From Styela clava (Eukaryota), in the NCBI RefSeq assembly GCF_964204865.1, contig NC_135250.1:4340001-4404000 (forward strand): a stretch of DNA of 64,000 nucleotides, in the 5' to 3' direction. The notes below the pieces were generated by a model. It worked only from the letters and a program-made list of their open reading frames with translations, had not been told where the DNA came from and made no database searches. A program made the translations under genes and the position numbers. Numbering within the stretch: position 1 is the stretch's first letter; each line of letters begins with the position of its first letter. Positions 4,196-63,946 of this stretch are shown in pieces.

Positions 4196-7100
4196 TCACG
4201 TCCTGGTTACTGCCATATTTTCTTGCACATCTTCGACGTTATCATCATTTTTAACTTTATTTTTTCTTTGAAGATGCCGTTCGCTCAATTTAGCTTCTAC
4301 TGCTGTTATGTGAGGTGGAGGGCCGACAAGGCCCAGAATACAAGGCAGGAATATTAGTCCGTTCCAGAGACCATATCCAACGACACACACGAATACCTGA
4401 ATCATAGAAAAATTGCCTTTGCTATTATAATATTAATAGTAAACGTTTTAAGCGAGTTGATTGCTGAATAGTAAATGTTTTAACAAAAAGTTTAGAAGCA
4501 AGCTATATACCAGGGTTGTGGATTCGGATTTTGAAATGTTGAAATTCTGAACTGAACTTGAAATTTCATGAACCTGAAACGGTCCCAGAAACAACCAATT
4601 TTCAATTTTGCAAAAATTTAACTTACAGTGAAAAATACTTTGTAGGAATAAGTATTCGATCCGCTCAGTAACACAAGAGCTAGGAAAGTGCTGAATCCTC
4701 CATTGAATACAGCTGGTCCTATCTGACCCAGAGTGACGCGAACTCTCATTCTTTTAGTCCCACGTAGAGTGAGAAACTTATGGGCAACGTGAGCAGCGTA
4801 ATCGACAGCAAGACCAACTGAGAGCAGGAGTGTGATAATTGTACTGGTTTCAATTGTGAGACCTGTAAATAGTGAATGTGAGCATGTATAAATACAGAAA
4901 CTTCACCGAGCATCGACTTCCTTGTTAGTTTCCGCAACAACGTCTAATCAGCAGGAATTAACGGTGACGTAAAATATGAAACTTTAGTAATCGATCAGAC
5001 GCATTTCCAAGCATGTTTGTAATAATTGTAGCTTTTCGTATAGTTTTGACTGTTATTTGCCAGTTTTTATTTTTGTTTCCAAATTTTGGGAATAAATTCA
5101 GTTCTTAGAGGAACTTTGTCGAGGTGTTATCTGGATACTCCCGTAGTATGTGTACCAGGTTAGGATTAGGCCATAATTTTATTTCGATTCTCCCTATAAA
5201 GTTCTAGTACTCTTCTATTGAGCTCAGGGGCTGTCTGTGTTAGCCAAGTGAATATACACCCTGTCCATAGGTTTCCGTCCCTTTATACAACTTGATGTAA
5301 AATAGGCAAAGAAAATTGGTACACATATTTCTGAAGCGCCGTTGTTTGGTTGCAGCAATGTAAAACGACAAGGAAAAGCGATTAAAAAGCGATTTATCAT
5401 TACGTCAATATATCCCGCCCACCATCAACAACAAAACCATTCTGCAAAACGATCCATTTGTCAACTTTGCATTCAATAACTAACCCACCTGTGAAGTACA
5501 TGCTTCCGGCAACATCAATAATGGTGAACACAACACATATGACAACCCAGAAACTCATTTGTAGACTCGCTATCATTGGCAATACCATCACAAATACACA
5601 TAGTAATGTGATACCAAGGTTTCTGTAAACTTCTGATCTGATTATCTTCATGATACTGAATTGGAAGTAGGATCTGCAAATGAAAACGATAGTTGTTACC
5701 TTGTTAATTGAACAACAGATGTTATAATAAAACAGAGAATACGCGATCAAATACTATTGTTAATAAACGAGAACGCGACGCTCACATATAAGGACACGAA
5801 AGTCCAATAACAACTTACCGCAGTGCCTGTATGTAGCCATAAGCAGGCTTAAGCAGAAATGTGACCGAGCGCTAAACTTGTAAATCAAAACCGAAGACAA
5901 CCGTGACGTAGCCAGTTAGGCGGGAATAAAAACAAAAAAAAAACATCGATGTAATTGGTGAAATATCGAATCTCACGGGACTAAGAGGAGACTTGATAAA
6001 TTTCCTAATATCGAGTTGTGACACCATACTTCGGTTCTTGACGTGAATAAAATTGTTTTGAATATCCAGAAAGTTGCTTATATGCCGGCGCAATCAGAAA
6101 AATATATAACACATTTTTATTAGTTTCAAATAATTTTATTCTATAAACAAAATGTCTACCACCCCCTGAATTTGAAGACACCCCGCGGCCCCCCTTAAAT
6201 AGAAAAGATTGGTAACATACTGATGAAAAGGTAGTTAGTCGGTACTTCTGTAGTATGTGAGCCAAGATGGCGGACACCGGAACGTAGTATGTGTACCAGG
6301 TTAGAGTTAAGCCATAATTTCAGGTACAAATAATACGGGAGTCACTGAATTAGTCGTCGAACTCTTAATAGAACTAAAATAAGGAAAATTGGAATAAAAT
6401 TATGGCCTAACTCTAACCTGGTACACATACTACGTTCCGATGTCCGGTATTTTGGTTCACATACTACGGGAGCGCCAGTTAGTCTCGCGTAGCCCCAACT
6501 GATAGAAAATGTTAATCACCTATGAAATGGAAATGCAGAGTCGCTGAATCCCACTGAATCACAAACTTCATGCAAACTATCCATGATATCCACATTTTGA
6601 ACATTTTCTTCAACTGCTATGTGTTGAACGCGGAACCGCGATCCAACAATCTTCCCAAATCGCACTGCAACTTCCTACAAAATATAGGTCATTATTGATA
6701 AAGCTGAGTTGGGGTCAAAAGTTAACATGGGCAAACTACGGCCCGCGGGCCAAATCCGGACGGTTGCGTAATTCAATATGGCCCGCCTGATGCTGCCACA
6801 ATCAAACTAAAACCAAATTTTGAGGTTTTAGATGAAAAATAGTGCAAGGAATTTGTTGAGATTGCGATTAGCTTTAGTTTTGGCACGAGGCTTATTGTCT
6901 TCCACTTTCTCTTTCGTGACACTCTAAATATTGTTCATGAAAGGTATTCTTACGTCACACTTACATAGCCCGCCAGTCTAGATGGGAAAATTTTTGGCCG
7001 CTGGTCCAAACGAATAACTAGTTAGCTATTCCCATAACGGACATAGTAAGGGAACGAGAGGCCGTAGTTTGACATAAGATTGCTTTTCGTCCCGCGGAAT

Positions 7101-10017
7101 AAATATGAAAATCACATCTTATATGTCATATTCTATCATCACAAGGTGCTGAATATTCCACAAAGTTACAAAGGTTATTTAGAACATGAACTTACACTTG
7201 CATAAACTCTTCCTTTTCCAGTTAAATATTCCATGACAGACCCAAAGAACTGCTGGGAGTTAACATAAGCATCGTCTTTGTATATATCGGTTACATTCTT
7301 CTCTGTTGACATCCAGTACACGTAGTTCTCAAACCAACTGTATGAAACATTTCGATTTAGTTAAAAAAAAAATAACGTATCTGGCCTAAGGGGTATATAA
7401 CAGTGATATGATTTAAAATTAAAAAAAAAGGTTTCGACTTTTTTATCGAACTCACTAATAACAGGCCTCTCATTACAGAAAAAAAAAAACATAAGATCAC
7501 ATGCCAATAACAACACGCTTCCTATAGTCGTCATCTGCGTTCCACGTTACCCATTTGTTTCGGTTATCTAACGTCTCAAATTAGGAACTAGAACAGATTC
7601 GCTGATTATCAAGATCGTACATGCGAGTTTATGCGAACATGTGGATTCCTACCACTGGTGCATATAAAAAGCTTATTTCATTAGATCTTTGCAGAGGCGG
7701 GAACAGAACTTCTCAAAGGGGATGTCCTGAAATTTCTATTTGCCAAGTTTGATTGAAACAGCTAGCGGGTCCAGCTAAGGGGTCGTTGTCTTTCGAGGCG
7801 TCCCGATTTGAAGTCACAAAAATATGGTAACCCTGGTTAAGTCCAACTACTTGACCGGCATGCCAAAGCTCCAGCGCCGTAGCCAGGGTTGGTATTGGGG
7901 GTAGGAACCCACACCCCACCCATGAGCCTTGAGGGTCTAAAAAGCGTATATTTTTAAAATGTGGTGGGGTGTGGGTTCCTACCCCCAATACCAACCCTGG
8001 CTACGGCGCTGGAGCTTTGGCATGCCGGTCAAGTAGTTGGACTTAACCAGGGTTACCATATTTTTGTGACTTCACATCGGGACGCCTCGAAAGACAACGA
8101 CCCCTTAGCTGTGATTTTGTAACTTCACATTTTCCGATTTTACTACATAGGCCTACATTCCTCCTACATTTAAAGCTGTCTCGGCTAGTCGGCTGTCTTT
8201 ATTGACCATATTGTTATCGAAATTACATGCGCATATTCTCTGTCCAAATATCGGGTTCAGTTCGAAAAATAGGAAGGAATTTACGTTAACGATACCGGTA
8301 CAAATAATTCGAACTTAGACTAATTAGTATTGGTTTTACATGCGATACGCTCGCCCTCAATGGGAATCAGCGGGGAACGAACGCATTCACCTTCAGTAAG
8401 TAGGCTAGCGCTGCGCTACACAGAAACAACAGTAACGACAACATGTTTGTGTATTATGCTGGAAAAGCAGGACTTTTGGCTAACTTATCGGGACGGCGGG
8501 ACAAACGCTGAAAAGCGGGACTGTCCCGCCTGAAGCGGGACGTATGGTAAGCCTAGACTTAACCATATTGGGATTGCAGGTTGCATCTAGCGGCTTCAAA
8601 TCATATTCCCACAATCCCACCTTTTAATTAAGGGTGCAGTAAATTGGATAGAGAACGCCGAACCGTTAAGATTTCGGTCTGTCAAAATATTGTGGCATAA
8701 ATGACTAGTAGTCGGATGAAAGACATAAGCAACGTGCGGGGTTTGAAATATTATAGATAATGAAATCAGTGGCGATATAATACTCTTAACGTATAGCGCA
8801 ATTGGGCGTCGTGTTGACAGGAAGTTTGATTTTTAAGTGAAAGAAGAAGTGGGCCAGTCGCTGGAACGGAAGCTCTTAACAGCTTACTATTCCAGGTTAC
8901 TGCCGTCAAAATTGTTAACAATTGTGGTTTAATCAAATATGTTTAATCAAACATGTGCTGAATAATAAATACCTTGTTAAAGTTGTCGGGTCTATGTTAG
9001 TGTTTTTCTTCAATTTTTCGTACAAAATATGAAGTTTTTCTCTTTCTTCATAAAAATCTGCGTCGATGACAAAAATGGCGGCATCTTGCCCCGGAGCAAA
9101 GTACTTGTCGTATTCTTTGCCGAATGGAATCAGGTAACTGAAATGAAATTGACTTGAAATTAGGCTGTGAAATCAAGGAGTTAACCAGCATTTGGCAGCA
9201 TACTAGATAAACATCAATGAAATATCAAAAAACAATGCTCGAATATATATATATATATATATGGAAACGAAGGTTGCGCACCGGGATGGTGTGGTCTTAA
9301 ATGAGCAGTGGGTTTGATTAAACAATCAACCGACGTGCTGACGTGGTGTCAAAATAAACGAAAACAATCGAAACTTGGATTAAATATTGAGACCAATAGG
9401 ACTCGGATTATAGTTGAAACAAGAATAAAAAGAATAACCTTCTAGGTCAGATATGACAAACTACGGCCAGCGGTACAAATCAGACCCGTTGGGGAATTCA
9501 ATCTGGCCCAATTAAAATAAAACCAAAATTTGAATTCAAGAAATTTGTTGAGATTGCGAATAAATTTTGTTTTGGCGCGAGGCTCATTGTTTTCCCCTAA
9601 TCCTTTGTAACGCTTAAAGGTTGTTTATGGAATGTAAAAAACTTTTTACGTCAAATTTACATGGCCAGACAGCCTAGGTGGGCATTTTTTTTCACCCCCG
9701 GTCAAAAATCTAGCTACTTCTTCCATATGTAAATATCGAAAATTAGTCTCCCGTAGCAACGCTCAGAAATCAGTCTCGTCAACTTATGAGCGGTTCCCCG
9801 CGACCTTGCTTTGAGAAAATGTTCTTAAACAAGAAAATAGAAATTTCATTTACCTTTCTTGTGGAAGATACCAATCGGGATCGAAGCTGACTTTTAAGAG
9901 AGTGAAACCCCATCCCATGAGTGCAGTCAGTCCCAGGGTTGCCAGAATTACTGCGATCTGTACCGGAAACATCTGAACAACTTTTCCGATGACGTCTTCA
10001 AAGAACGTTGCAAAGAA
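4196..10017 (-). CDS. Fusion gene exons 13-19 (second RND repeat to stop)
   Basis: FDPDWYLPQESYL, SWFENY, GLAVDYAAHVAH, IGPAVFNGGFSTFLA, GLIFLPCILGLVGP; TGA at 4196-4198. Confidence 0.92.
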
Positions 10018-13000
10018 CTGAAATTTGATGTAAAAAATATTTAGTATTAAAAAAAAATCTAATTTCTCAAATAACATAATAAAAAAACAAAAACCATAAA
10101 CAAGTTTATTTTCAAAACTTCATAAAGAATTATCAACTTTTATATAAATATAAAAAAGAGAGGTCAAGAGTATTCCAGGAAAATGATTAGATTCTTTTTC
10201 ATGATACATGGTCCTCGTTCGGAGAACTTCCAATATTCCCTCTGCTCTTATATAAATAAACATACATTTGTTTTTAGTGGTTCCATTACATTTGAACCCA
10301 CGTACATTTGAACCCGTAATTTGAACCCACGACAATTGCATCTGCATACTATTGTACCTATGGAATTTATTTACGGATATTTGAACCCATACTAACCCTA
10401 ACCCATGGATTTTAGCACCCTCATATACATTGAACCCGCGGATATACGGGTGCAAATGTATTGGTTCAAAGGTACGGTCACCGTTTTTAGCGCATTTCCA
10501 TCAGTAATGTTATACGCATGCTTAAATACCAAAAAAAGAAAATAAATAAATGTATTATAGGCAACCAATTAATAAATAAATTACAGTCAATTTACTTTGA
10601 ATTGAATGTAGTCATGGAGAACGGTACCTAGCGAAGGCTTAGTTAGTGGCACTTACGAGGGCCGGGGCTCAGATTCGTTTAATTTCTGACTAGAAAAAAA
10701 TAAAAGGAAAAATATTGGCGATTGCGGTCTGACACGGAGTGTTGAGAGTCTTTGAAAGGGGCTGACGGAACTTGAAAGTTTGAGAAGCACTGCCAAGTAG
10801 ATTCACTTTGTCAGGCTGTGAAATAACGACATTAACTTACTTCTCGTTGGGAACATTCACTTTGCTTGTAATTTTCATCATGTTTGTAGCAACAGGCGAG
10901 GCATGCGTCATAATTTTCTTCTCTCCTTCGTTGATCAAGAACGGTGCATGCCAGGAATAATGTGCACTGAATAGTGTGAATACGTTTGTTTAGTTCGTAC
11001 AAAAATATACAGAAATAAGTTAATTCAAACATATATATGAAAATGTGTGGTGTTTTGCTAAATTTTCTTGTTGTTGTTAGCCTTTATTGTTGTTGTTGTG
11101 GCAGCTTTTTCGGTGGGAATAAAAATCCCTCCTTTCGGTAACTAATGGACCAATCAATTTCAAATTTTTAGTATCTAAGGATGGAAATAGTCGCCAGACG
11201 GCTATTTCATGTTTATCATATTTATTAATGTACAAAGAGTTGATAATCGCGATCATAATCATTGAAATAATAATCTGACGTATTGAGTGATGGCATAGTG
11301 GTTTTAGCGGTATTTTGCCATTTCAGATTACACGTCTCATCTTAAAATCCCATGCCGCCATTTTACCTAGAGTGTAATAAATTAGGCAGTCAAAGTTAAA
11401 GCGGAAAAATCCCGGTCTTCCAAAACAAATTGCTCTTAAGATATTGTTAGATGTTAAAAATGCTTGTAGCGGTAGTTATTCTGAGCGAATGTCGCGAATG
11501 AGCGTTTCATGAACAGAAAAACAAATGTCTTACTTGTAAAAAGAATAGCAATATAATGCAGACAGCAACATAAATACTGAAGGAAGCAAAGGAACCGAGT
11601 TCGCTTGATGACCCAACCGCAAATGCAACAAGATCAGTCACCGATGTCACAGTTATAGAGACTCCTGCAGACTAAAATTAAAACAGATTGATAAATGCAA
11701 GAATCGGAGTTTCATCTCGTATAATTCTGAGTGAGCGAGCGTAAGTAACGTACCGAATGTCCTTAGACTTGAAACTGTGAATGCTACATAACTGTATTTA
11801 AAAAAAACTTTGGGCATGATGATAGAGTGAATGGATGAGAGCTCACAATCAACCTAGTTTGGTAGAAAGTGATGTTACCGTGGTGATTTCAACAGCATGC
11901 TAACTGAAAATTTTAGAAAAGTCATCGTATTTCAAGAAAATCTCCAGTGGAAGCGCAATAATTAACTATTTATTATAAGTGTTACCTTCATATTTAGTAT
12001 TAAATAAATTGTCTTCGTTTTCGCTAAATATTTAAAAAATGTACGTAGTCTGATTTTGGGGGGAAATTGGAATTTGTATTTATTTGTACAGAGCAGATTT
12101 AAATAAAATGCTAACCTTCAATGCATGCCCAGATTTCTTCGCTAACGGCAGTTTTCTAAGATGTGGATCATCGTCAATAGTATTCCAAGATTGAATTAAA
12201 ATAAACATGTCATCCACTCCTATTCCAATAATGAGAAACGGGGCAACAAGGTGAATAACAGACCATTCGAATCCAAAGGAGGCGGATAAACCAATGCCAG
12301 CTCCCATTGACAAACCAGCGGTGACGATTCCCATCATGGCGATGTATGTTCTGAAATACGAAACTATGTATAATTTTTGTTTCGATTTATATTTTATAAG
12401 TCTGTCTGTCCAAAGTCGAACCTTACATATTTCGTTCTTTTGAAAATATTAGCTTCTTATATATCATTAGATATCAATGAATGCTTGCACAGGGCATTGT
12501 TCGAAGGCGTGAATAATCATCGTATAAAATAACTCACCTGTGTTCTAAGAGCGAAAATTTTCCAGTCATGAGTATGATGTAAACAAAAATGAGGGCAAAT
12601 CCAGCAAATAATAGAGGCAAATCTTTCCGGTAACCGGTCCCTGCTTCGAGTGACCGACTTCCGCGTGATTCTACGTAGACTGAAAAACCTTCGTATTCGG
12701 CGTTTCCCACTTCAATGAAAGCTTTTTCCCAGTCGTCGTCTTTACGTCTGGAATAAGTTGGAATTTATTGCAAAATTTTTTCATTGACATACATTTTACT
12801 TACATGTATTTCGTATGGCTTAGTGGTTATATTACGTTGCTTCCAAAAAGTCGTGTCCAACTGTCCCCACATTTTATAGCCCTTCAATCTTTATAGAACA
12901 CATACACCACTTGTCCCACTTTGCTACACTTGTCTCAAAGTTCCGAGTTAGGGTACATATATATTGGGGCAAATGGTTAAATGTAAGTGAATGGTGTGTG

Positions 13001-16000
13001 TATGAATTTCGTACAGGTTTATATTACTGCTGATGTTACGGTATCTTTAAAATATTGCCCCACACTTTTCCACACATTAACACACTTGTCCTACCAGTCC
13101 CGTACTTGTCCACACATGTAGCACTTGTACCATTGTTCTAAGTTAGGTTAAATAATTATTGTGTTAAAGTAAACATATGAAGTGGAATTCATGCTATTTC
13201 TGATTTAGAAGAGATATAACCTTTAGAAACTGATGAAAATCACTATTCAGCTATTTTCGCAATAAATATCATAAACAACAATAAACTAAGCGATTTGTTT
13301 TACTTACGACACGACGTAATACATTCTGTGGGCCTTTGCTCCTATGATATCTCCTTTGCCATCTCTTGTAATTCCTCCTGTAAAAGCCACAAGTATCATC
13401 AGTGAACTTTTGAATAAATAAAACAAATGTCAAACGGTGTATATTTACGGCATTTTATGTAATATTACTGGTATATTAAAATTTTAACTTTGATAATGGA
13501 CTTTTCCGTCTTATTGAACTTAAGTATATAAATTTCTGAACTGAACTATAAACAAATAAATAATACAATAGATCCATTTGATATGATAGAAAGTCAGTCA
13601 GGTTTTGAAAGTATCAGTTGGTCTCAATAGTTGCACATCAACTTGCGCTCTTAACAAAATGGCGATTCCCTTTTATACTTATTTTTGGAAACGACGCGTC
13701 GATGGGAATCTTCTAAACCAGGGGTGTGAAACCTTTAAGACAAAACCTTCTGTTCAAATCCGTGGGTTTCTATTAGAAAATAACTATTTTTTCTGCATCA
13801 CGAGGTTACCAAATCTAATGTATGGTTTTTTCAGCACCTGAGTCTCACAATTTTAGCGTTCAAAGTGATAAGATGGGGAAGGCATTAAATTTTTTTTCAA
13901 GGCTGGAAATAATTCACTGGAAATGGAAGCTGAAAATATAGCACTGGCGAAACGAAATACACAATTTCTTATGTTCTGGAATATTCGTTCTCATATTAGT
14001 CAACTTAGAAGATGAGACGAAAACGCTTGATTGAAAATTAAGATGAGATTTATGCCGGTAACTTCATTTTCGCTATGGCACTCGACATTTCGGTGTAGTC
14101 TGCCTGCTCTTATCAATCAAAATGGGAAAGCAATTTATCAGTAACCAATCAATAGAAAACGCATCAACATTTAAATAATCAAGCAAACAATTAATCTTTA
14201 GTCTCGGGCAGTATGTCAATTAACAGAATCTCAACACAAAAACAGGTATCTGGACCAGAACTTAACTTCAACTCTTTCAGTTTAAAGCCCGAGTTAACGC
14301 TCGTGTATTTTTATTTTCCAAGCTTCAACGCCCGAATTCAACAATTCGCCAATATATACTTTTCTTTCTCAAGAATCAACGCTCAAACTCTTCGAATTTG
14401 TGTCTTATTATCAATGTATATATTAAAATTAAACGTTTTGTGTGCCAAACAGATCAGATGATACATGGTTTATATACATTAACTGTGAATCTTAATGATG
14501 AATTCGGGGGGAGCTGACTTTGATGACCATATGGTCGTATCGCTCTCTCCAGTCTATACCGAATTAACTCGCTTATTTTGTATATATATATTTTGTTGTA
14601 CCATTGGTTGACGAAATAATAAATCTCTCTCTCTAATACAGAAGGGCCAAATACAAATAACTGGGTGAAACCTCACGCCGCATCTTTATTTAATAATATA
14701 AGCTACCTAGTAGTTGCAAGCACAAAAATTTTGGATAGAGATCTTATGACATGCGTTGGTAAAATTAAACTTTCCTAATTTTCGCGAACAGTATGTGAAT
14801 GACAATTTTTATTTTATTGTCAACAATAACATTACGATTTTTCCACTCACCTATCATCGTAGTTATATCGACTTCATCTCGGAATACTGGACTCACAAGA
14901 TCGCCGTTGATTTTTTCTTTTATTTCGTCGGTTGTCACCATAGCCAGAGCAGTCTCGTTGAAACTCCAAAACTCAAACAATGAACGTTCCTTACATTGTC
15001 CTGCTGACTTTGTGCAAATCTGAGAAAACGTTCTTCCTTTTGTACCGTTGAGGCTTCTGATTCTGAATTTAGATTAAGATCACATTTTTTTTGTTTCCAT
15101 TTCAAACCTCATTGTCAAAATATGGTTTCGATTAACAAGTTGCGAAGTTCACCTCGACTTTTGACAGGAAAAAGAAGGCGGCGATTCCAAATTTGCGTCT
15201 GAACCGATTTGAATAAGTTAATTTTCGATTCGAAATGCCCAGCTCTGGGCGGGAGTCGAATACGATTGTTAGTTTTCACAACACCGAATCAGGATGCTCA
15301 TCGTCATGTCTTTTATGGACAACAAATGGATACTCCCAAAGTGTGTGAACTAACATGGCGGAAACCGGAACTTAGTATGTGTACCAGGTTAGGGTTAGAC
15401 CATAATTTCAGGTGCAAATAATACGGGAGTCACTTGGCTAGTCCCCAAACTCGTAATAAAACTAAAATATACGTTCTACTACGTTCCGGTGTCCACCATC
15501 TTGGTTCACATACTTCGGGAGTACCAACAAATCACTATGAGCCATTGTTAGGAGGCTCGACTTATTTGCTTAACTGGACTTAAACCCGAGTCACCATTTA
15601 TTAAAGACTTGAAGTGACTCGAATCATCTAAATAGAATGACTAGGATTCGTCAACTAACTGCCGAACGCGACTCAGTGATTGATTGACTCGACTATTATC
15701 CGTGACTCAACCTGACTCGGAATACTTTAACCCGACACTGCTATAAACCACACCAGAACTTACTTTGCGTCAATTTTTGCCATTGCCCTGAACTTATCTT
15801 CAGTAAGCAAATTGTCTTCAGCGACAATTAATATTGTTTGATCTCTATCTACAACGGGGAATGTCTGTCTGTATGCAACATATTCCTTTATTATTTGCGC
15901 GTCTTCTGGCAAAAATCCACTGCTACCCGTGGGTTGTTCTCGGCGTTGTAAGAGGCCAATGAAAAGAGTTCCTGAGAACATAAAATAAAAGTGTTATAGT

Positions 16001-19000
16001 TTAGGGCAGGGGTGTGCAACCTTTTTTATTGGCGGGCCAAATACAAGTAACTGGGTGAAGCCGCGGGCCGCACCTTTTTTTAGTTTAGGCCTTCTGGTAG
16101 TTGCAAGCACAAAAATTGCCTATATTTGCTATTGATCTTACGGCATTATTAGAGGTTCTTGCAGAAATAGTAGATTTAAAACGCATAAACTTCTGGAGTA
16201 ACTGCTATTTAAATTTTTTGTCACACCGACTTCAAACGAATGCAGTGAGAAACACGTTTTTGTAATATAAATCGTGTATTTTGCAACAGAATTTTGCTAG
16301 CTTGTTTTGCTAATATGACTGGTATGGACTTTGCGACGTAAAAGAATAAATACTCGTTTTGCGGGTACACCATTCGAAATTGTTATTTCTCCGCGAGCCG
16401 CACAACTTCTTCTTGCGGGCCGCTTTTGGCAGTTTGCACATCCCTGGTTTAGGGCATTGGTTCTCAATCTTTTAAAGCCACGCCTCATTTTTAGAATTTG
16501 TCCAGTTTTGCGCCCCACCTCAAAAATAACTAGCTACAATAAGCTAAAAATATCAGATAGTAAAGCGAAAGTACGTTCAATTCAAAAACACGTTAAAAGA
16601 CGTGGATGGAAAGAAAATAATGGAATAAGTGAAAATTTTTGAAATGTAAACATCGAAAATAAGGAATCCGATCAGAAATAATGGAAATACTCAATTGGAC
16701 TCGAGTATTTGATGAATGGTAACAAGTGCACAAGTGGACCCGTATACGTATAACGCAGGGATGCTGTAGCAAGAATAAAGATGACTACATACGACTACAA
16801 ATTTCTAATACTTAAGATACAGTGAATTTGAAATAATTGAGATACAGCACTCAGTCGAACTGTTTTGAGTCTTGTCTCAATCAGCATTTTGTAGCGTGTA
16901 ATCCGACATCATATATATATCCATATAGTTTCAGTAGATCTTGGCATTTCAGGGGTCGCCCATATTTTTGCTCAGATTTGAGTTTCCTTCACTTTTGAGT
17001 GAGTGCGCGTGGCCTTGCTTTGGGGGATTTTTTAAAAAAAATACTCACCTGTAAGAATCAACGAGAGTAGTATCACCATCTTCGGGTTGCTCCCTACTTG
17101 CACTCCCAACCAGTAAAATCCATTTTCCAGTGTCGAAGAAATCGCGTCAGGTATCTTTGCATACCACTTCTTTTTTGTTTCCTCTTTATCTTTCGTGACG
17201 TCACCAGTTGATGACGCATTATCCACTACTTTTGACATCGTGATGATGGCGGTATCAGGTGATTTGTCTACTCCGTTTTGTTGATTTTCTTGCTCGGACT
17301 CTAGCGCCATCTCGTTTTGGTAAACTTGCGCGTCCTTGATTGAATTCTTTTTCGAGTCATTGTCCCTTTCTTGTCGTTTGAGAATGCCGGCCATAAATAT
17401 TACAAACATAATGAAGTCGATGAACACCAGGACGACAAACGGCAGAACGAATGCAAATAGAAAAACGTGTAACGTTGACTTGTCTTCAAATGTTAAAGTG
17501 TCTCCGTCCGTGGTGTTGACTGTAGGCGTTGGTAATGATTGTGATGTCATTTTGTCATAGCAACCATCTGGCCAATAAATGCGAAGAGTTTCGTTGGCGT
17601 AACAAGATGAATCTTTCAATCGATATTCGTCAGGAGAATCGAAACCACAGCAAGAGTACTAGAATGAAGAGAATAATACGTGTTAAATTTTTATTTTATA
17701 TATAAATAGATGATAATCTTGTCGAATTACCGTTAGCCTGCCAGTATTCAACGTTAGTATGTATTAATTCAGACTTTCATGAGTTTTATTCGCGTTATCA
17801 TTCCTCGTGGATTAGGTGCAGAAATAGATACGGCATAGGATGGGGGTCCATCAAAAATAAGACTCACAAACAGAGGTCCGCCGCCCAAATAGTTTGGGAA
17901 ACTCTGCTTAGACAACTGTGCAGGTTACACAACTCTCAAATCTTATGCCCACCACCTTGGGTATCAGTAATACGGCAGGGAAATAAGGAAATGTTAAACA
18001 AACGGAAAAGATTCCGGTCAAAAATATTAGCCCCTTATATATCGTTAGGTACTAATCTGTCAATCAATCAAATAAATCGATACGCTAACCTCTAAGACTA
18101 AGTAGAAGACTTTTCCAACTTAATGCTTAAAGTTACGATTTTCAAGGCTTAGTTGAAAAGCCTTGCTAGAGGCGAAAAGACACATCGAAGAAATATCCAT
18201 AAATCGCAATATTGTTGCCCAAAAGATTTTTTTGAATCTAGTACAGTCTTACGTGATTTTGTATCAAGTTTTTCGTTCTCATATCAGCTTCTTTCCAGAC
18301 TTCGCCAATATATTCTTTTCTGGCATCAGTGGGAATTAATCCCCAGATAAGCAATGCTAGAGCTAAACCGGTGTTAATGATTAGAAACACAGTGACCTGG
18401 AAAAAGAGAAATGTCATATAAATTAAATATACAAGAGAATACTATAAAGCGAAATGAATTTGTGTCAAGATGTTAAAATTCTGAGCTGAACACAGACATA
18501 TATATATTTTGTAGAGTTTCTTCTAACCAAGGTCAGACTATTACGTTCACGATCAGCTAGTTGAATCAAATTTTTCTGTGATTGATTGATATGTCGACCT
18601 TCTGAATGAATCGGCAATTTTTTGACTTTGTTTATTTATTTAAATTATAGATACATGACGAAATTTGAGGAAAAACAGTAGTTTATCATTATAACAACGT
18701 TGTTACCTCGCTAAGCACTCATTCTTTTTTATTTTTGAGTGAATTCGCGTGACCATAAAAAATATCAGGGATTCAATAAAAATAAGATAAACTTACGAAG
18801 ATATGATAAAGTCGTTTATGTGCAAATGTAGCAATCAACGCAAGTGTGCATGCCAGAAATGTGATTCCGCCCATTCCTATTAGCCAGTGAGAGAGAGGCT
18901 GAAATAAAGGTAAATATTGTTACGACTTAAAATATAGATAATAGGTTATATATATATCTATATAACGGTGCTTCAGAAACCAACACTAACCTGGTACACA

Positions 19001-22000
19001 CACTACGGGAGTACCGCTCAATCAATACCTATATACTATGGCTGCTACTGCAGTGCGAGGTGTACCGTCATATGTCGCTTCATTACCCTTATCAATTGTA
19101 TATGTAGTGGCGTATCCAGGGTATGGCAACCATGGCTCGTGTAGTGGGAGCCGTTTAGATTGGGGGCGCAAAATGGGTAAAAAGTTTCAATCGCAAAATG
19201 TTTCAATAAAATAATTTCAAGTTGGATATAATTTAAACTCGTATTTATTCTTAAATATTAACGTATAAGTTGTTCAATTTTAACCATGGTTGTTAAAAAT
19301 TTTCAGTCAACGTTCAAGAATGCGACTTTTTCAAACTTTGCCATAGGCGCCATTTAAAGAAGATGCCCCACTGTGTATATGTATCACTATCGTCATAATA
19401 TATTTGTTTTATAAAATATAATTGACACAATGTACAAGTGATGTTGAAACAACTCCGAACTCAAAAAGGTTATACAAGCAGCCTGACAAGTGTATACCGT
19501 AGTTGTTTTAAGATAACGATTACTTTGTAACCGCCATCTTTATTTATCATAACACAATAATATACAAAACGAAATGAAAAATATGATTAGTAATGAGGGC
19601 TACCGCGAGTTCGTACATCGACCAAATGTTACCTCGGACAACTTTGGCCTCCTTCACACAGGGAAATAAGTAGAAGTTGAAAACAGTAGAATTATTGATA
19701 TTTGCTCGCCAAGTGGCGCGTGATCTGGTGTATATATATTTAAAAAAAAACGAAAATTTAATCGACGCCAGACACGGCTAACCCGCCAAGCAAGTCACAA
19801 ATATATACAAAAATTAACACATCGTTGATCGTTGCGGAGTGCTGGTCTACGCGGCGATGTGACCTAAATCTGGTCTTCCCGAACTGGGAGTCGCGTCCCC
19901 ACAGAGGCCGCGAAATGAATTTTAACAAGCCATGTTCTAAATAATACACTAACAATATGGTGAGAATGAACAAAATATTACAGATTAAAATTTGTGTAAA
20001 AGTGATGCAATATATCTAAACCACTCAAGAATCTGTTATTCCGGAAATAAGGAGATTTTCAGCTTTCTTGGTAACTAAGAAATCGCGCCCAACTTTCTAC
20101 TAAATCTTAGTATTGTTGGTATTTAGTTTAAAACACAACACTAATTCTATGAATAACACGGTGACTCATTACTACGGTGATAACGTTGCGATGATGTTTA
20201 CTAATTCAGTTACTGAAGACTAATATTGTTGAAGGTTCCAAGAAACGATAATCATGTAATAACATTAAAACAGGACAGGAGCGGATTAGCTTGTAATTAT
20301 ACTGAGTTGTTAGTGGTAAAAATGGGAGAAAGGCCTGGAAGTTTACATTCAAAGTGAGTATAAAATTCCGTAGACGGTTTGAAAGTGGGTTTGGTTTAAA
20401 TAAATTTATTACTAGAACAGAAACGACCTAAAGAACGGTCAAATTGCGTCACCCGAGAAATGATTATGACGCCATCACTTTCGTCATAATAATTTTCTTC
20501 TTTCATGAGCGTTTATTGCGTCGGATTAGAAGAAATGCTTTAACTAATGAGTTTACAACAGATGAAAATTGTTCCTACTTTCATTACAAACAAGTCTCTC
20601 CGTGAGAAACTATTGTAAGAAGTTAATATTTTTTTAGGGAAAGACCGAAATATTTTTCGCAACTAAGCAATTGAAGCAATTCTCATTTTAGAATTTTCTA
20701 ATCATTACCGAAAAACAATTCTAACATAATGAATCCTGCCTCGATTCCAGGAATAATAGAAATTGAGTTTACAAGATTTCGACCAAGCGCGAAGAATGGA
20801 AACATGAAGGAAGACCAACCATGTAAATTGATTAAAACCAATGTTCCGCTTGAGAACAGGTTTCAAATTTTTTTTGCTGTGGTTATTTTAATGCTGACCA
20901 CGCTTCACGCTTTCAATTTTAAAAACGTACGCTTGATAATTGCACTTTAAGGCAGAGGTGTGAAACCTTTATTACGTGAGGGCCAGATACAAATAACTGG
21001 ATGAAACCGCGCGCCGCACCTTTACTTAAACATAGGCTCCCCCTGGTCTACTGATAAGATCGTTTGACAAAACAATGAAGGCGTTGCAGATTAAATGTAC
21101 CGGATTTCTCATTGTCACCATCTCATTCGTGTACCGTATTTCACAGATCAAAAGGCAGACCGGGTAATCAATAATGTGATTAGATTGGGTTTTTGTTCAT
21201 ACACAAGGCGTACCGGACTATAGAACGCAACGGATTTTCATGTATAAAACAATAGTAACGGTACTGGTTTTGAGTGTGAGCAATATAGCATGAATCATTG
21301 TCTGAACCGTACATTAGCCGCACCTGACTATAACACGCAAGCGGTAATGGTGCTAGTTTCGAGTGCGAGCAATAAAGCATAAAGCACCATACATTAGGCG
21401 CATCGGCTTAAAAGACGCTCGATCGATTTTTGATAGGAAAATAAGATTTAAAGTGCGCTTCATTATCTGTAAAATTCAATAATAAATCAGGTAAGCAATG
21501 GCGAAGCAAACGGTATGATCGCGATACACCATTTTGAAATATTATACATAGGAATTCGCGTGCAAACAGCTGAAATAGTAACCTCGTTATTAAATTTCAT
21601 CAAGTTTAAATTACACAAAAGTATCATATAGGTATCAAATAGGTATTGTGCTCAAATATGCCAAAAATATGCTGTACTCCTGTAGTATTTGTACCAGGTT
21701 AGGGTTAGGTCATAATTTTATTCCGATTTTCCTTATTTTTGTTCTATTACGTTTTCGGGAACTGTCCCAAACTGTTTGAGCAGACATATTGAAATAAAAT
21801 TCTGTTTTTTTCTCTCTGATTTATATCAGATTTCATAACATAAAAAATCTCTAAATATCTTACGTAGAATGAGTCTCTTTCTATTTATTGAATTTTGAAC
21901 TTTGATTCACCTGATTAAAAAACTTTAGCTAAATACTTTGCGGTGTTATCGATTAGGGTTGCACGTTAATTATCCTGACAGTTCTACCTCACCAGTATTT

Positions 22001-25000
22001 AAAATGTGATTTTCCACGTCATTTTGAGTTTTATCTCACATTCGAAGTTACATTTTATAAATTATATAACACAAAGCAAGGTCATGTACTCTCGTTTGAT
22101 TGAAGGAAAGAATTGTAATCCCACTGGCATTCTAAGAGATTCACAAAGATAGGGTTTATCAAACTGTGCGCTCGGTCCTTCAGGGCATGGCTACGCAACT
22201 GGATACTCATATATGCACCTGACTGTATATGAAAAGGTTTGTAACCCAATATTAAACAATCTTTTATTTTCTGGAAAGACCGGACCCTATTAGTTCTGAA
22301 GTTTTGTATGCAGATCTATTCCTGTCTACGCCTCTGCATCAGAAAATTTGGTTCGAGTAAACACTGAGTTAAGTCTCACATGGCGGATAGTTCGAATCTT
22401 TGATGAATGGTGACTGGATCCAACTCGAATGACCCAAGCCTATGTAACCTAGTAGGGTAAAAATCTCTAAACCCCAAGTCTTGAGTAGAGTCAATCAATG
22501 AATGTACCGGCCATGATTTTAAACAGTGACCACTCTTATTGTTCTGCCTATGTAACTGAACTGGCTACGGTAACTTTAGGAATTAAATCTTGACCATTTT
22601 GGCGTTGTCGTGAGCATCTTGGAGTTAGGGGAGGTAGGGCGCGTAAATTTGTATCTTAATCAATCGGGGGGAGGGGGGCCGCAGGAAATTTCACCGCATG
22701 GAAAAATTTGCCGCATGAATAATCACCGCAAGAGCATTTTGATGTAAAACAAGTATTTGTGATCAGAACATTGAGGTTTATAGAGTTAGGGTATGCTCTT
22801 AAATAACGAATCTTTAAAAAAAAAAGTTACTTCAAAAACCTAACTGTTTTTATCACAAATATACACTTGTTTTACAACAAAATGCTCTTGCGGCAATTTT
22901 TCCTATGCAGCGAAATTTCCTGCGGCGAGACTTCCTGCGGCGAATTTTCTTAGAACCGATGACATTGCTTGATTAGACAAATTTTTATATAATCTCGTTG
23001 TTGCGATCACATTCGTTTATTCAAGACCTACGCAACAAAGGTTACATTTACGAACAAAATGCATGAACTTTTATATCTTATATAGGTGATATAACAAATC
23101 TTAGATCAAAGAAGCTGAGTTGAATATTTACATTTACAGGTCGCCACGTTTTCGACGAGCCGACCCTACCTGCCCGGCTGCGGTATCACTTGCCTATCAA
23201 AATTGCTTCGTTGATGGGACTAGATTTGCAAACTTTGATTCGAGGCTTTTGAGTGATCAGAATAACGTATTTAAATATAAATCACGCAGACTACCGGTAC
23301 TGTGGTTAGTCATTGAAACCTAGTGCAAATACTTGAGCATAAGTGACGAGAGGCCTTGTGATTAAACCGCCCTATCGACTTTCCTCTCCCCGGGATAAAT
23401 ATACAAATTCAATCTCATCCCAACTCAAGTCGCATTGGCTACCGGTACTGCGATTAGTCATTGACTTCAGCATAAGTAGGCTAATTGGACGAGAGACCGT
23501 GGTTGCTATGACGAATAATATTGCAACATTAGTGTCATGTTTATGTTTATCATTTCACAATGCTTATGTTTCCAAAATATCAGCTAATTTAGCGGTGTTT
23601 TTTATATAAATCAACGGCCGTAGGAAGGGATGGGCGTTTTCGAATACTTGATGTTTTTAAAAACGAATCCGGAACAGGTATGTAATTGTATGTGATCGTG
23701 ATCTTTTTATTGTTATGTCCTCCAGACACGTAAATTACTAAAAAAAACATAAAATTCACCACTCCAAACAGTCTCTGAGCGTTCAAACATAATAAGAAAT
23801 ATGTTTCATCAATAACTCACTAGGTAAAAAGAGTCCTATTACAAAAATGCATTTTACAAATATGGCTTAAAAAAAGATGATTCGAAATTTTCGTCTAATT
23901 CCAAACCGATTCAAATAATTCACTATTCGATTTGAAATGCCCAGCTCTAGCCATGAGAAGACAACTCAAATTCAGCAAAGAGTTGTCATAAATCCGATTC
24001 TCACACCGCAAATTTGTTTGTTGCTTGTTTATATGAAACTGTTAAATATATGTAACAGTTGTCTGATTTGCCTTATCCGGATTTGTACGCTTTATCTTAT
24101 CAGTATCACAGCTTTTAAGACGTTGAAAAATATTTCTTAGAAAGGATTTACATATTTTTGAGTTGTATGTACGATTGACCTCCATTATCTATATTCTATA
24201 GGACCGCATATTGGTTTACCGGGATGCAGAATGTATGACTTGAAAGTCTTACAATAATGCGACTTGCGAAAAGTTTATATAGTTTATCTCTAATACTTGG
24301 CAACTTTTGGCGTTATACTTTGAAAAATTTTCAATTCGTTGAAAAAGTTTTCTGTCTAAACTTATTAAATACATTGACCTCAAAACTTTGAAGAAACGAT
24401 TATTGATAAAATAGGATCTACGATAAAAATACATCCAACATGTCAAATCTTATTCCATATTTAACATTTACGCTATATGGATAAGGGAGTAAACCTGAAT
24501 TTCAAGAAAGACTGGCTATTGCACGAAGTTATGATTCGTCAATTTTTTGAAAGTAGCTATTCAATGCGATGTCGCGTTGATATTGTTGTACGCATTGGGT
24601 CACCAATTCGACGCCGAATTCTTTTCAGTAAAGCGGTACATAACAGGTAAGACGATAGCAATATGAGTGTGTTTTAGTATTATTAAAAAATGTGATTTTT
24701 CTTCGGGCTTATTTAAATATTGCTAAAGCCAAGCTCAATTTCTAATATGACATACCCTAATTTCCTTTTGTTTTAATGTTGGGCATATTTGTTCATGTTT
24801 AGATGAGTTACATGAGGTTTGCTTAGTGCCACAACTTTCTATGTTTAACACAGGTAAAGATGACCAAAAACTTCAGTTACCATGACTCATCCTATTCTAG
24901 AATATTATGATCCTTCGTGTAATATATACGCTTTCACCTCGTGTCAGTGCTTTGTGTAATCTTACATCAATCAATATGCCCTTTAAGTATTCTGATGGAG

Positions 25001-28000
25001 CAACTGTGATTTTCAAATATTATCTCAAAGCCACTTTCGACTGGTTTATTTATAAAACAAGTTTCTAATGTGAGATCTAAGTCTGTGATAACAAATTTTC
25101 GACCAGATTCACGTTTAGACTTCGTGTATATTACATGATATATAACATGAAATAACGATAAAATTCATCAAAAATGTTATCAGTCAAATGAAGGTGACTC
25201 ATGTAAGTTTTATAATCAAGTGGTTTTTATTGGGAATCCAGTTTTATCATAACAGCATTTATTAGACACGAAATAGACATATATTGCATGAAATATGACA
25301 TGGTGTGCGGCTAAGGGCAAATGGATGAAATTTTTATTAAAAATGTTATCAGGTGAAATGAAGGTGAATCAACAACCATTTAATTTTTATAATAAAGGGT
25401 TTTTAATGGAAAACCGGTTTCATCATCCTGTCATTTACTGGACACAAAATATGAATCGTTTTGATGTTATTTATCGATCTCGATCGGTAAGTATGTTGAT
25501 AGGTATTTGTCTGTTTGTCTGTTAGACACTTTCGTATGTTACGCGATATCTCACGAAAGCGAGGTTGAATCTGCTCAAAATTTTGCATGTGTATTCATCA
25601 CATCTCGGACCAGAATCGATTTTGGATGAATTATGTCGTATAATTAGCGAGTTAATATTTAATTGGTAATGGGACACTCGGTGTCGCTATTGAGTCAAAG
25701 CGAAACCGCAGATCGCTGTCGGCGGTATTCGATCGATATCTAGTTATGCTGTTGTTGTGAAAAAAAACTCGTTTTTCTCTTTAACTACTGGACCAATTGC
25801 TTTCAAATTTTCAGTGGTTAAAGATTGTTGTTGTCGCTAGAAAGCTAATGCATTTATTTATCTCAAAAATATTTGTGGGTTCTATGAGATTCGTTTTTCA
25901 CTTTGAAGTTTTTTGTGATGACATCATCGAAAGTAAAAATTGTTTGCCGTGGTTTCGTGATCGTCTTAGTGATCTGGTGCTAAGGTACTCTATAAGATTT
26001 GATACTACTTCGTGTCCATATATTTGAGCAAAGCCTTATACAATCTTTACGATATGCAATAGCGACCAAAAGAGATTTTTAGGCGTTGGACTAACAATGC
26101 GGACATCGCAGGTTAAAAATCTCGTACCGCTGCCACCACTGGTACCGCGGGGCTGTACTGTGATGATGTGTAATTTTCCACCAAACACTCCTAATATTAT
26201 TCATGGATTGCGGAAAACGAAAGATAATTTAACCATATTGAAAAAAAGCGTTCAGGCAAAATGTATTTTGAGCTGTGGTCATATTGTTACTTATCGATCT
26301 TAAGATCGGTAAGTATGTTGATAGGTATTTGTCTGTTTGTTTGTTTGTTTGTTTGCCTGTTAGATACACGCAATATCTCACGAAAGCAAGGTTGAATCTG
26401 CTCCAAATTTTGCATGTGCATTCATCATAGTTCGGAACAGAAGCCTATTGATTTTCGATGAATTATGTCGTATAATTAGCGAGTTATTGATTAATTAGTG
26501 ATGGGACACACAGTGTCACTATGGAGTAAGAGCGCTGTTTTGGGGGATCCCCTAACCTCCGATATATAAGTCTTCGGTCTCCGATCGATAAGTCTTCGGT
26601 CTCCAATCGATATTCTCGTTTCAACTTTGATGCGTTACTAAACAGCCCAGCTATGACATAATGATACTAATATTACAATTGTAGCGATGATTGTTGGAAA
26701 ATAAGATTAAAAAGGCGAGGTTCATGTACTTTCATGTTTGGTTTTGACGTCTTTAAGCCCCGAGGTTGTGGCTAATTTTTTTTTTGGAAGAATCCGACAA
26801 TTGTCTCGTCAAATATTTGAACCGTCATTTTTGTAGATGTTATCAATGACTGGGATTTCAAAATCGGTTTGTGTCAGCCAGTGTATGTGTGTGTGCTCGT
26901 ATGTGTGTGTGTGGAGCTGGCTTGAGTTGTTGTCATTTTCTATTTGTGACTGAGAATATTCCCCGACGATTTAAATATATATTTGAACTCGTTGTGTGTG
27001 TGTGCGTGTGAAGTTGTTGACTTGTTTTTACTTTTGCTATGCATGACTAAAAATGTTCATCGGTGATTGTCAAACTCGCTATACGAGTACTTGTATGTAT
27101 GTGTATGTGTGTGTTTATGCGTGTGTGTGTGTGTGTGTGTGTGAAGTTGACTTATTTCGATACTTTTGCTATGCATGACTCAGAATATTCATCGGTGATT
27201 ATTATTTTTCTACCTGGTATGTAAGTGTGTATGTGTGTGTGCGCGTAAATTTGACTTATTTTGTTACTTTTGTTATGTATGACTGAGAATATTAATCAGT
27301 GTTTGTTATTCTTAAACTCGCTATGTGAGTGCGTGTGTGTGTTTGAAGTTGAGTTATTTTGTTACTTTTGATATGCATGACTCAGAATATTCATCAGTGA
27401 TCATTATTTCTTTCCTTGGTATGTGAGTGCTTATGTATGTATGTGTATGTGCGTGTGTGTAAAGTTGACTTATTTTGTTACTTTTGCTACGCATGACTCA
27501 GAATATTCATCAGTGATCATTATTTCCTTCCTTGGTATGTGAGTGTTTTGTATGTGTGTGTGTGAGTGCGTATGTGTATGTGTGTATGCAATAAAGTTGA
27601 CTTATTTTGATAGTTTTGCTATTCCTGACTCAGAATATTCATCAGTGATTATTATTTTCTCACTCGACATGTGTGTATGTGTATGTGTAAGTAAGTGTGA
27701 AGTTGACTTGCATTGTTTATATCTGCTATGCATGACTGAAAATATTAATCAGTGTTTGTTATTTTCAAACTCGCTATGTGAATGCGTATGTGTGTGTGTA
27801 TGTGTGTGTGGAGTTGGCTCGAAATTTTGTTATTCAATATGTGTGACTCAGAATATTCAACAATGATTGTTATTTTCAAGCTCGATATATGAGTCCGTTT
27901 TATGTGTATGACGGGTGAATTACATTCAAATCACAGTGATATGTGTTTATTAAACAATTACAACACTTTAAAGAAAAGCAGAGTTTATTTTTATTTTAAA

Positions 28001-31000
28001 ATCATTAAAATGGAAAAGTATATCTCAAACTCATTCTCAGTCAAACCTAGTCCAATTCACAACTCTTGACGAAACTATTGGTTTTTACCGATATCAATCC
28101 GCATAATCTTGAGAAACCGGTATCGTGGGAAACTCAGTTATGCTTTCAAGTTGGTATAAATTTATGATGATTATTTTGAATCATTGAGAGAATAGGTACA
28201 TGCGGTTTAGCCGATACATTAAAGGAAACATCGAACGAGAGATAAGAAAATTGTCGCACGACCTGGCCCGCTTTGTTAAGTTTACTTCACTTTTATCTCA
28301 CTGGTTTCGCAGAAATACCTTCATCTTTCTGTTTGTGTACAGGTTGTTTCAGCTCATGTAAATAAATAAGCGTTACCGCGATTTTTATCGTAACGTTTCC
28401 AAAAATGCTAACGACACGATACATAAAAATTTCTTGGAAGAACAACGTGGTCCCCACGAGTAAATAAACAATGTTGATTGTCGATATACTTATTACGCGT
28501 TTATATAAAGAAAAATGATACAAACTGACTGGCGAGTTCAACTACAAAAAAATATAAAAAGCTCAAAAATCGAAGGGTAGAGTAAGCCTTCAGACAGTGG
28601 TTTTGGGGGAAAAAACGCAAAAGAACGATAAGCTGCAGAAACTTTTATTTACATGGTGTTAAAAGTAACACAAAATTAACAGAAGTTAAGATGAAATGCT
28701 ACTTCAAACATTTAACTACTGACATCTTTTAACAGTATTGAATTACGGCAAAATGCCATTTAAACATTTCATGACTGACACCTTTTAACAGTATTGAATT
28801 ACGGTGAAATGCCGTTTTAAACATTTCACGACTGACACCTTTTGACAGTATTCAATTACGGTGAAATGCCGTTTTAAACATTTCACGACTGACACCTTTT
28901 AACAGTATTGAATTACGGTGAAATACTGTTTTAAACATTTCACGACTGACACCTTTTAACAGTATTCAATTACGGTGAAATGCAATTTAAAACATTTTAC
29001 GACTGACATCTTTTACCAGTATTAAATTACGAAGAACTTCCATTTAAACATTTCACGACTGACACCTTTTAACAGTTACTTTTTTACCGTTGTCATGACG
29101 AAAAATTGAACCTTAATTTTTAACACCCTGTATTGTTGATATAATTTAATTGATCCTTTAGAATTAGATCATGATGGTCCAAATCCATAACGTTAAGTTC
29201 ATAGAATTTTCAAACCGAACCGAGCATGGCACTGAATGCGTCTGCGATTTGTTGCCATTTGTCGAATTATAATTAAATTATAGGCTCATTAAACGAGTAA
29301 TTGTGAATTATACTTGTTAGAATATAATGTAATTTAGTCTACACGCGTCTCACAATGAATTGTGTAACGTGAAAAATATAATCGTCAAAACAGCTGTTTT
29401 GTTACTATAATTCAGTAAAGCGTCGCGGGCCGGATTACGTTACTCCGCGGGCCAGACCCGGCCCACGGGCCGTAGGTTGCTGACACCTGGCCTAAACGTT
29501 CACAAAACAACGCAATGGTGTCCAACTAAAAGCTAGAATGCATGGTATTTCGGAAATTCGGGTGGAAATACCTAGGGGCTCCACCCACCTCCTCAGAAAC
29601 GAAACTTCTACAAAAATTTTGTGCCATTGCGGTCCCTGAGTAAAGTTACTTTTTTACTCTTGCAGCGTCATATTTGTAAGACAACGAAATAGTTCGAAAT
29701 ATTCTTAACTTCAAAAGCTTATAACTTTCTAACAACTAAGCAAGTAGGGTATTGAGACATTTCAAAGAAAAGCAGATGTGATCGTGAAATCAGAAAATAA
29801 TATCATATTTTGTACATACATTTGATCAAAATATGTCCTAAATACAACTAAGTTTTCCATGGACATAATGTCATCAAATGAAGATGTTTAAAAATTAAGC
29901 AAAAATATGTTATTCAAAACACGCAATAAAACCTTTGCTAACGATTACAAATGATATGACTGTAGTAGAACATCTTAAAATAGAGAGAAACAGCCAGAAT
30001 AGATAGATTATTTGCAAAACTGTAATCTTATTTACCCCATTGCCATCAAACTATATCTCAGACCGATTCAATAAATTCAGTACACCAAACCTGTACACAA
30101 AAAAATTAAATACTTCTTACCCTGAAGGATGCACAGTTTTCCGCAATTTCTTCGACATTTGTTTCACCCATGGTAATGATTGCTAGAGGTATAGTTGCGG
30201 TTATGAGGATTGCACCCATATTCTGAATAAATTGTAATAATTAGATTTTTTTGACTTTTTTTTTTTGTACGGATTTCATATAGCACAATAATTTACGTTA
30301 ACTCTGAAGTATTTCAACGACTTGCGTACTTTTACCATATGACTCTGATCACGAATAAATTGCCTGCCTAGATAAAGCCTTATTGTAAGCAAAACTTGAA
30401 TAAAACATATCTCAAAAGTTTGGTGAAATGCATTTAATGTCGAACTAAGGGGTTGTGGCATAACTTAGAGCTGGGTTTCCCTAACTGGGGGTCACGATCC
30501 CGCAGGTGGGCGCGCAATGGATTTTAGGGTCGCAAAGAGTACACTAATTTCACACAAGTTGTACATTTTTCAGACAATTCAGCAAATGAAACCTATTTTT
30601 GCTTTCACAGTCTCGCAGTAGCGTCTATAGTGCTTATTATCATTATGGCCATATTTTATTAGATTTACTACCATTATTACATTCGTTGTTTAACATTATT
30701 TCAAATATTACATATAGTCATATATACAAAGGTTTAAAAACATACTATTTGAATGTTTTAGAATCAGTGGTTTTTGAGGGGGCGTGAAGCTGATTAAAAT
30801 TAAAATATTTGTTAGATTTGATCTTGCCCGCCTTATATGGATATTTACATTTCAAAACTTTTCATTTACTTTATTAATTACGTTCCATTCACGTATTTTC
30901 AACATGTTTTTTGTTTAAAACACACTTTACTATCTGTTATTTGTAGCTTATTGTTAGCTAGTTATTTTTGAGGTGGGACGCGAGACTTGACAAGTTCTAA

Positions 31001-52768: not shown

Positions 52769-63946
<11,178 letters not shown>

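Follow-up and report, generated by a model that had tools for sequence, protein, structure and literature searches.

Tetraspanins (PF00335; e.g., CD53, CD9 and CD81) are small free organisers with a CCG motif and a large loop that holds four or more cysteines, and a tetraspanin is normally a stand-alone protein with its own stop after the fourth membrane helix (TM4). On the RND side, the closest described systems are the invertebrate 'PTCHD3-like' NPC1-related proteins (Branchiostoma XP_078695306.1, P0004 in this study), with a 12-helix core, a sterol-sensing domain and acidic motifs, and NPC1/NPC1L1, which have an extra membrane-anchored module ahead of that core. One link between the two families comes from human, where TSPAN8 was reported to bind and stabilise PTCH1, a Patched-family RND protein, with the PTCH1 C-terminal tail as the binding site (PMC6599078). 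Patched-related proteins and a tetraspanin both act in cuticle formation in C. elegans (PMC11304992).

The gene described here lies on the minus strand of a 64,000-nt stretch of the Styela clava genome (the window; Table 1) and combines both families in 19 exons. Its product, P0001, is known in RefSeq by the automatic label 'patched domain-containing protein 3-like'. It shares the core, the sterol-sensing domain and the acidic motifs of the PTCHD3-like proteins, at about 40% identity, and like them is without the N-terminal domain of NPC1; in place of a tetraspanin, those proteins have at their N-terminus a cytosolic tail that is short or of low complexity (median 18.5 aa). As in NPC1/NPC1L1 there is an added module ahead of the core, but it brings four extra helices instead of one and is not a luminal N-terminal sterol-binding domain. 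With tetraspanins it has in common four helices, the CCG motif and four loop cysteines, and with the free S. clava tetraspanins also phase-0 introns at three positions; it differs in not standing alone, in having neither the GCCG of TM2 nor the TM4 intron, and in its divergence. The TSPAN8–PTCH1 complex likewise pairs a tetraspanin with an RND protein, although its partners come from two separate genes, meet through a C-terminal tail and involve another RND subfamily. Both domain families are thus known and RefSeq holds models, yet no description of the combination was found: a literature search over titles and the beginnings of abstracts, with subscription journals mostly outside its coverage, returned no paper on a tetraspanin–RND architecture.

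One Exon across the Junction

An earlier note on this DNA had placed the CCG loop and TM4 of a tetraspanin, a low-complexity linker and the helix that precedes TM1 of a Patched-type protein in one uninterrupted 610-nt exon without a stop, and frame and splice limits bear this out. On the minus strand, 17658-17035 form an open frame of 208 codons, in which YSCCG, TM4, a K/E/D/N/S-rich linker and STLENGFYWLGVQVGSNPKMVILL are found. Within it, exon 5 is bounded by ag just before 17658 and gt just after 17049, runs from phase 0 to phase 1, and contains the CCG loop and TM4, a linker of about 70 residues and the beginning of an RND protein of the NPC1/PTCHD3 type. It is the longest exon of the gene, as had been claimed, the other 18 coding exons measuring 70-236 nt. 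Its DNA has one match in the genome, and as a control for chance, of 3614 windows taken from intron 2, each 70 codons long, 5 were free of stops. The tetraspanin has no stop codon of its own, since the frame runs on for 925 residues past TM4.

Table 1. Positions of the fused gene and its parts in the window, with the expanded tetraspanin group found elsewhere
Feature	Position	Strand	Remarks or basis
Whole coding span, tetraspanin–RND fusion	4196..33218	minus	1160 aa, XP_039273601; 16 predicted membrane helices; ATG 33218 to TGA 4196
Exon 1, coding part	33141..33218	minus	ATG at 33218; first half of tetraspanin TM1
Exon 2	30121..30222	minus	TM1 and small loop
Exon 3	18797..18898	minus	TM2
Exon 4	18253..18396	minus	TM3 and large-loop helices
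Exon 5, junction exon	17049..17658	minus	Residues 143-345; frame, splice limits, transcript contigs
Tetraspanin CCG motif, C145-G147	17644..17652	minus	Invariant in 5/5 fused proteins
Tetraspanin TM4, about residues 207-235	17380..17466	minus	Hydropathy and structure models
Cytosolic low-complexity linker, residues 236-303	17176..17379	minus	pLDDT, variant codons, identity to relatives
Linker methionines M259 and M283	17310-17308, 17238-17236	minus	
RND pre-TM1 helix and start of TM1, residues 307-345	17049..17166	minus	
Exons 6-19, NPC1/PTCHD3-like RND body	4196..15971	minus	
Exons 6-10	15971-15764, 15062-14851, 13377-13308, 12747-12538, 12350-12116	minus	
Exons 11-15	11671-11534, 10966-10841, 10017-9854, 9137-8973, 7337-7196	minus	
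Exons 16-19	6674-6520, 5673-5489, 4862-4627, 4396-4196	minus	With TGA
Expanded tetraspanin group	G000 C4:18369067-18380369, C10:14386995-14388038, C6:7580182-7581108, C18:13073088-13074116		

Transcript Contigs and Assemblies

The genes of an operon in Ciona and other ascidians follow each other with no intergenic DNA, and gene predictions often fuse them by mistake (PMC2760879). Because of this known failure mode, the alternative that an operon or two adjacent genes had been mis-predicted as one, or that the assembly itself is chimeric, needed testing. Contigs from X1, X5, X6 and X13 (four of four runs, from four studies) cover 17048-17658 with no gaps. In X13, a single 3775-nt contig carries exon 5 at 569-1179, followed by at least exons 6, 7, 9 and 10, and its length would fit a whole mRNA. 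Exon 5 is joined to exon 4 in the X1 and X5 contigs and is whole in those of X6 and X8, where the loose ends are exon 6 and exon 4 sequence; the X9 contigs hold it in three pieces up to 17515, joined to exon 6, and an X10 contig, which may be the source of the window itself, spans it without a difference. None of the three RNA-type runs showed a loose end inside exon 5, and there were no indels. This evidence consists of assembled contigs and not raw reads, so that minor isoforms would be lost and single molecules are not proved. The RNA nature of the runs is a guess, yet the contig joins fall at GT-AG limits. The two RefSeq record versions of the XP_039273601 protein differ at 12 residues with the frame kept, and a second assembly has the same frame across exon 5.

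The exon itself also lacks the features of an operon boundary. There is no upstream stop and no pyrimidine-rich, acceptor-like site for internal trans-splicing, nor is there an AATAAA or ATTAAA; the two paralogous junction exons each have two acceptor-like sites and one AATAAA, at unmatched places. In five proteins, which come from three or more organisms, the two domains are not separated by a stop, and the junction exons of the S. clava paralogs (610, 679 and 685 nt) differ by 69 and 75 nt, which are whole codons. As the three paralogs and the proteins of two further organisms all retain the frame, the view that the chimera is not a mis-joined gene model stands, and an artefact is exceedingly improbable.

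The Tetraspanin Half

The N-terminal part of the protein is a tetraspanin domain, though not a free tetraspanin. Pfam PF00335 matched P0001 at 20-181 with 46.4 bits against a cut-off of 32.1, and the cut-off was passed by four of the five fused proteins (44.9, 37.1 and 37.5 bits for P0173, P0175 and P0174); P0183 gave no match to this family. Hydropathy and models show four membrane helices, a small first loop and a large second loop, with cysteines at C145, C146, C161 and C175. Across the five fused proteins the CCG, the four loop cysteines and the four helices are all kept. A phase-0 ancestral intron pattern has been described for tetraspanins (PMC2650405), and all four introns of this half are in phase 0; three of the four positions (before xxG in TM1, at the start of TM3 and two codons before CCG) are those of the free S. 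clava tetraspanins on C3. The TM4 intron seen in six free C3 tetraspanin exons is absent from the fused gene, and the TM2 GCCG cysteines of the free S. clava tetraspanins are absent from the fused proteins. Identity among the fused proteins is 23-35% in this half versus 35-57% in the RND half, the tetraspanin half being divergent and the faster evolving of the two.

The N-domain modelled alone reached a pLDDT of 70.5, and Foldseek placed tetraspanins at ranks 1-6 with weak E values of 0.33-0.81; VIA-align gave PRPH2 at Z 10.0 with 157 aligned and an rmsd of 5.0, but generic helical bundles had a similar Z and one unrelated bundle equalled it. The sequence match to CD53 had an E value of 2e-4, and feature clusters for residues 1-240 pointed to tetraspanin at 0.89-0.91, which serves as a lead only.

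Long open frames in other tetraspanins of S. clava raised the possibility of further fusions, which was rejected, as these frames are long C-tails that end in a stop. A derivation of the fused domain from this long-tail group found no support: the intron there lies four codons before CCG instead of two and the best profile E value was 0.64. In the expanded group the last exon extends from CCG over 300-340 codons to the stop, and a shared acidic motif ends the tail in most copies. At G000 C4:17796001-17826000, a unit of about 4.5-5.5 kb with a long-tailed tetraspanin last exon is repeated five times, and the unit holds an opposite-strand exon that looks like one from an MFS transporter. Full tetraspanin frames that look intronless were seen on C17, C19 and C18 (L022, L023 and L024); intronless frames on C10 (L013) resemble thymidylate synthase and primase.

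The RND Half

The remainder of P0001 has a 12-helix core with a sterol-sensing domain, and the sterol-sensing and Patched families of Pfam matched residues 560-731 (PF12349, 121.6 bits; PF02460, 108.5 bits). Acidic motifs lie in TM4 and TM10 of the core (GIGVDD at 621-626 and GLAVDY at 1032-1037), with D625, D626 and D1036 kept in eight of eight fused rows. The NPC1 model TIGR00917 scored 179.5 bits against a cut-off of 1016.5, its match starting at model position 244 and residue 219, and the Patched receptor model TIGR00918 scored 136.9 against 1120.4; the luminal N-terminal domain of NPC1 is absent. The closest solved structures are NPC1L1 and NPC1 (sequence E 3e-65, fold E 3e-39), and the RND half would be expected to move sterol. 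A full-length model built from 94 aligned rows (pLDDT 86.3, pTM 0.83) consists of a four-helix N-domain, a low-confidence linker and an RND body. The topologies of the two halves fit, because TM4 leads into the cytosol, the side on which the RND part starts, and the product would stay one chain of 16 helices.

A Conserved Family of Fused Proteins

Two more fused genes stand in tandem at G000 C2:22266426-22275906 and 22280538-22290236, and the three S. clava paralogs have 19 exons each, with all 18 intron positions and phases alike. A homolog search found 155 matches among 7997 scored proteins. Among the 120 listed of these, 114 are unfused and five carry PF00335, namely four S. clava records and P0174 (Logan). 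The sixth fused row is P0183, a cluster of 15 JGI, Logan and ENA members, which is 32% identical, has four helices and a CCG, and matched a profile of two S. clava N-domains with an E value of 4.7e-26. P0174 is absent from the S. clava genome, where its best exon reaches 78%; it and P0183 are fused proteins from other organisms, 32-46% identical to the S. clava protein. A profile of the five fused N-domains matched 19 of 307 stored proteins, all from the fused set. Protein searches with exon 5 alone or with residues 1-420 returned P0001 only and are insensitive, because the known paralogs were missed too. No row named as another tunicate occurred among the 120 listed of the 155 matches, the search being a weak, word-based one.

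On the RND part alone the five fused proteins form one clade (support 1.0 with 50 rows; SH-aLRT 100 with 26 rows), in trees of chosen rows from the 94 aligned, which include no vertebrate PTCHD sequence. The clade is sister to the unfused amphioxus P0004 at 99 in the IQ-TREE run (26 rows), but with FastTree it lies apart from the animal groups; the branch of P0183 is long (1.09). The best matches of P0004 in the S. clava genome are the three fused genes, and for this reason no unfused copy was seen there. Since P0174 clusters with the two paralogs on C2, the duplication must predate the separation of its species from S. clava. From their place in the tree, P0174 and P0183 are probably of tunicate origin. 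The fusion is an old and conserved family, not a one-off event.

Compared with P0175, the second C2 paralog, P0003 is RefSeq isoform X2, which is without 95 residues of the first luminal domain through an in-frame skip of exons 7-8 (215+70 nt). A lone relic similar to exon 2, 52% identical to the C2 paralog, lies at G000 C2:22262889-22262990 (L001), 3.5 kb upstream of the first of the two fused genes on C2. It has no donor site that could be seen and may be what is left of a third tandem copy.

The Linker

The linker is unconserved. Its pLDDT is under 50 at residues 267-294, its length varies between 64 and 96 aa across the fused proteins, and its identity between relatives is 9-20%, below that of either flanking half. 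Seventeen variant sites in exon 5, from three runs, gave 8 synonymous and 1 non-synonymous variant codons in the domains and 1 and 6 in the linker (Fisher p 0.009; small numbers). The pN/pS values in exon 5 were 0.14, 1.52 and 0, the first being that of the tetraspanin half. These small numbers point to two constrained domains and an unconstrained linker, a contrast that the earlier note had suggested checking. The linker may be a passive tether, in which the frame matters and the sequence does not.

A linker so free to vary, next to a tetraspanin half that evolves faster than its partner, would also suit a fusion that merely co-expresses two proteins, with the linker cut after translation or the tetraspanin carried as a tolerated passenger. 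No conserved motif that could be a cut site was found in the linkers of the fused proteins, however, and the retention of the CCG, loop cysteines and helices in five proteins, together with the pN/pS of 0.14, makes co-expression distinctly improbable.

How the Fusion Arose

The earlier note had further proposed that the gene arose by stop loss or deletion between tandem genes, with UTR or intergenic DNA read through as the linker and the linker methionines as relics of the old PTCHD start or as alternative starts. While its reading of one real frame without a tetraspanin stop or mis-joined genes was supported, this origin story was not. The junction does lie within one exon in all three S. clava paralogs, the TM4 intron of the free tetraspanins is missing, and the abutting genes of ascidian operons would ease such an event (PMC2760879). 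Yet M259 and M283 have no counterpart at a fixed place in the other four linkers, and that of P0183 has no methionine at all, which speaks against relic or alternative starts. The GC content of the linker is 0.42, like that of the other exons (0.415) and above that of the introns (0.35). Moreover, 24 of 176 unfused relatives have at least 50 residues ahead of the pre-TM1 helix, and several free S. clava tetraspanins have one exon that runs from CCG through a long low-complexity C-tail. Such native tails would suffice to explain the linker, with no need of UTR or intergenic DNA. An alignment of the linker with 283 N-tails and with stored ORFs gave no match better than E 0.26, and the linkers are too diverged to trace because of their low identity.

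In the P0183 cluster, five members of 100 aa align with residues 275-365 and have foreign ends that resemble splice sites. Based on these protein ends, the organism of P0183 appears to have an intron in TM1, as in S. clava, and another inside the linker; the introns were deduced in this way because a metagenome scan with P0183 for DNA gave no loci. The exon would then start inside the linker in that organism, which fits a fusion by splicing equally well. The single junction exon thus seems not to be universal, and it does not tell by which route the two genes were joined. Nor can a stop loss be recent, the fusion being ancient and common to five proteins. Altogether, stop loss or deletion with read-through is rather doubtful. 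It concerns the origin of the gene and does not exclude the escort explanation of function given below.

Possible Functions of the Fusion

The account to which we lean, by a modest margin of belief, is that the fusion arose once in a tunicate ancestor and that the tetraspanin is a tethered escort, which would help to fold, sort or cluster the predicted sterol transporter in the membrane. Such a role is proposed because of the known roles of tetraspanins and the one precedent of TSPAN8 and PTCH1. The precedent is from a different RND subfamily, and the fused protein has no long counterpart of the PTCH1 C-terminal tail. This type of transporter works without a fused tetraspanin, as seen from the 114 unfused proteins among the 120 listed homologs.

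A different role would be that of a sterol hand-over or sensing module, in which the tetraspanin occupies the place that the N-terminal domain and the first helix have in NPC1, and hands cholesterol from the membrane on to the RND core. The RND half is indeed closest to NPC1/NPC1L1 among solved structures while being without their N-terminal domain, and the alignment of TIGR00917 from residue 219 puts TM4 where the model has the helix before the core, though this may be a hydrophobic coincidence. In CD81, cholesterol is held between N18 and E219 (PMC7863897), and P0001 has N27 in TM1 and D223 in TM4. These are at most putative counterparts of the CD81 residues; N27 is kept in only three of the five fused proteins, and the TM4 position varies between D, N and Q or is absent. 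Neither module is present in the 114 unfused relatives among the 120 listed. Hand-over is considered unlikely.

There is a bolder reading, rather less likely than not, in which an ancient tunicate family of 16-helix proteins would have the tetraspanin as an obligatory subunit of an NPC1-like sterol transporter, in the slot of the NPC1 N-terminal module. If that were true, the gene would be a natural fusion that points to direct coupling of tetraspanin and RND protein in sterol handling, where other animals have separate proteins. That the fusion was kept through duplications and across organisms 32% alike suggests a working link between a tetraspanin and a sterol-sensing RND protein, which has so far been hinted at by one study of TSPAN8 and PTCH1 (PMC6599078). 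The fused gene makes this link testable in one polypeptide. It also provides a marker with which to date the joining of two domains in tunicates, whose directly adjacent operon genes open a way to fusions. With the nematode cuticle in mind, one may speculate about a role at the epidermis that forms the tunic.

Other Features of the Window

Intron 2 (window 18899-30120) has a length of 11.2 kb and contains many repeats, which are also abundant among the RNA-type contigs; by contrast, the paralogs on C2 are compact genes of about 10 kb in all. A duplicate of the last exon, with flanks and a frameshift, lies about 11 kb beyond the window start at G000 C1:4329174-4329387 (L005), with no other exons near it in the 20 kb examined. 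On the minus strand at window 53480-59128 are exon-like frames of another gene, proline- and serine-rich. Pfam assigned no family to any of the four pieces, one of which resembles an SH2 domain.
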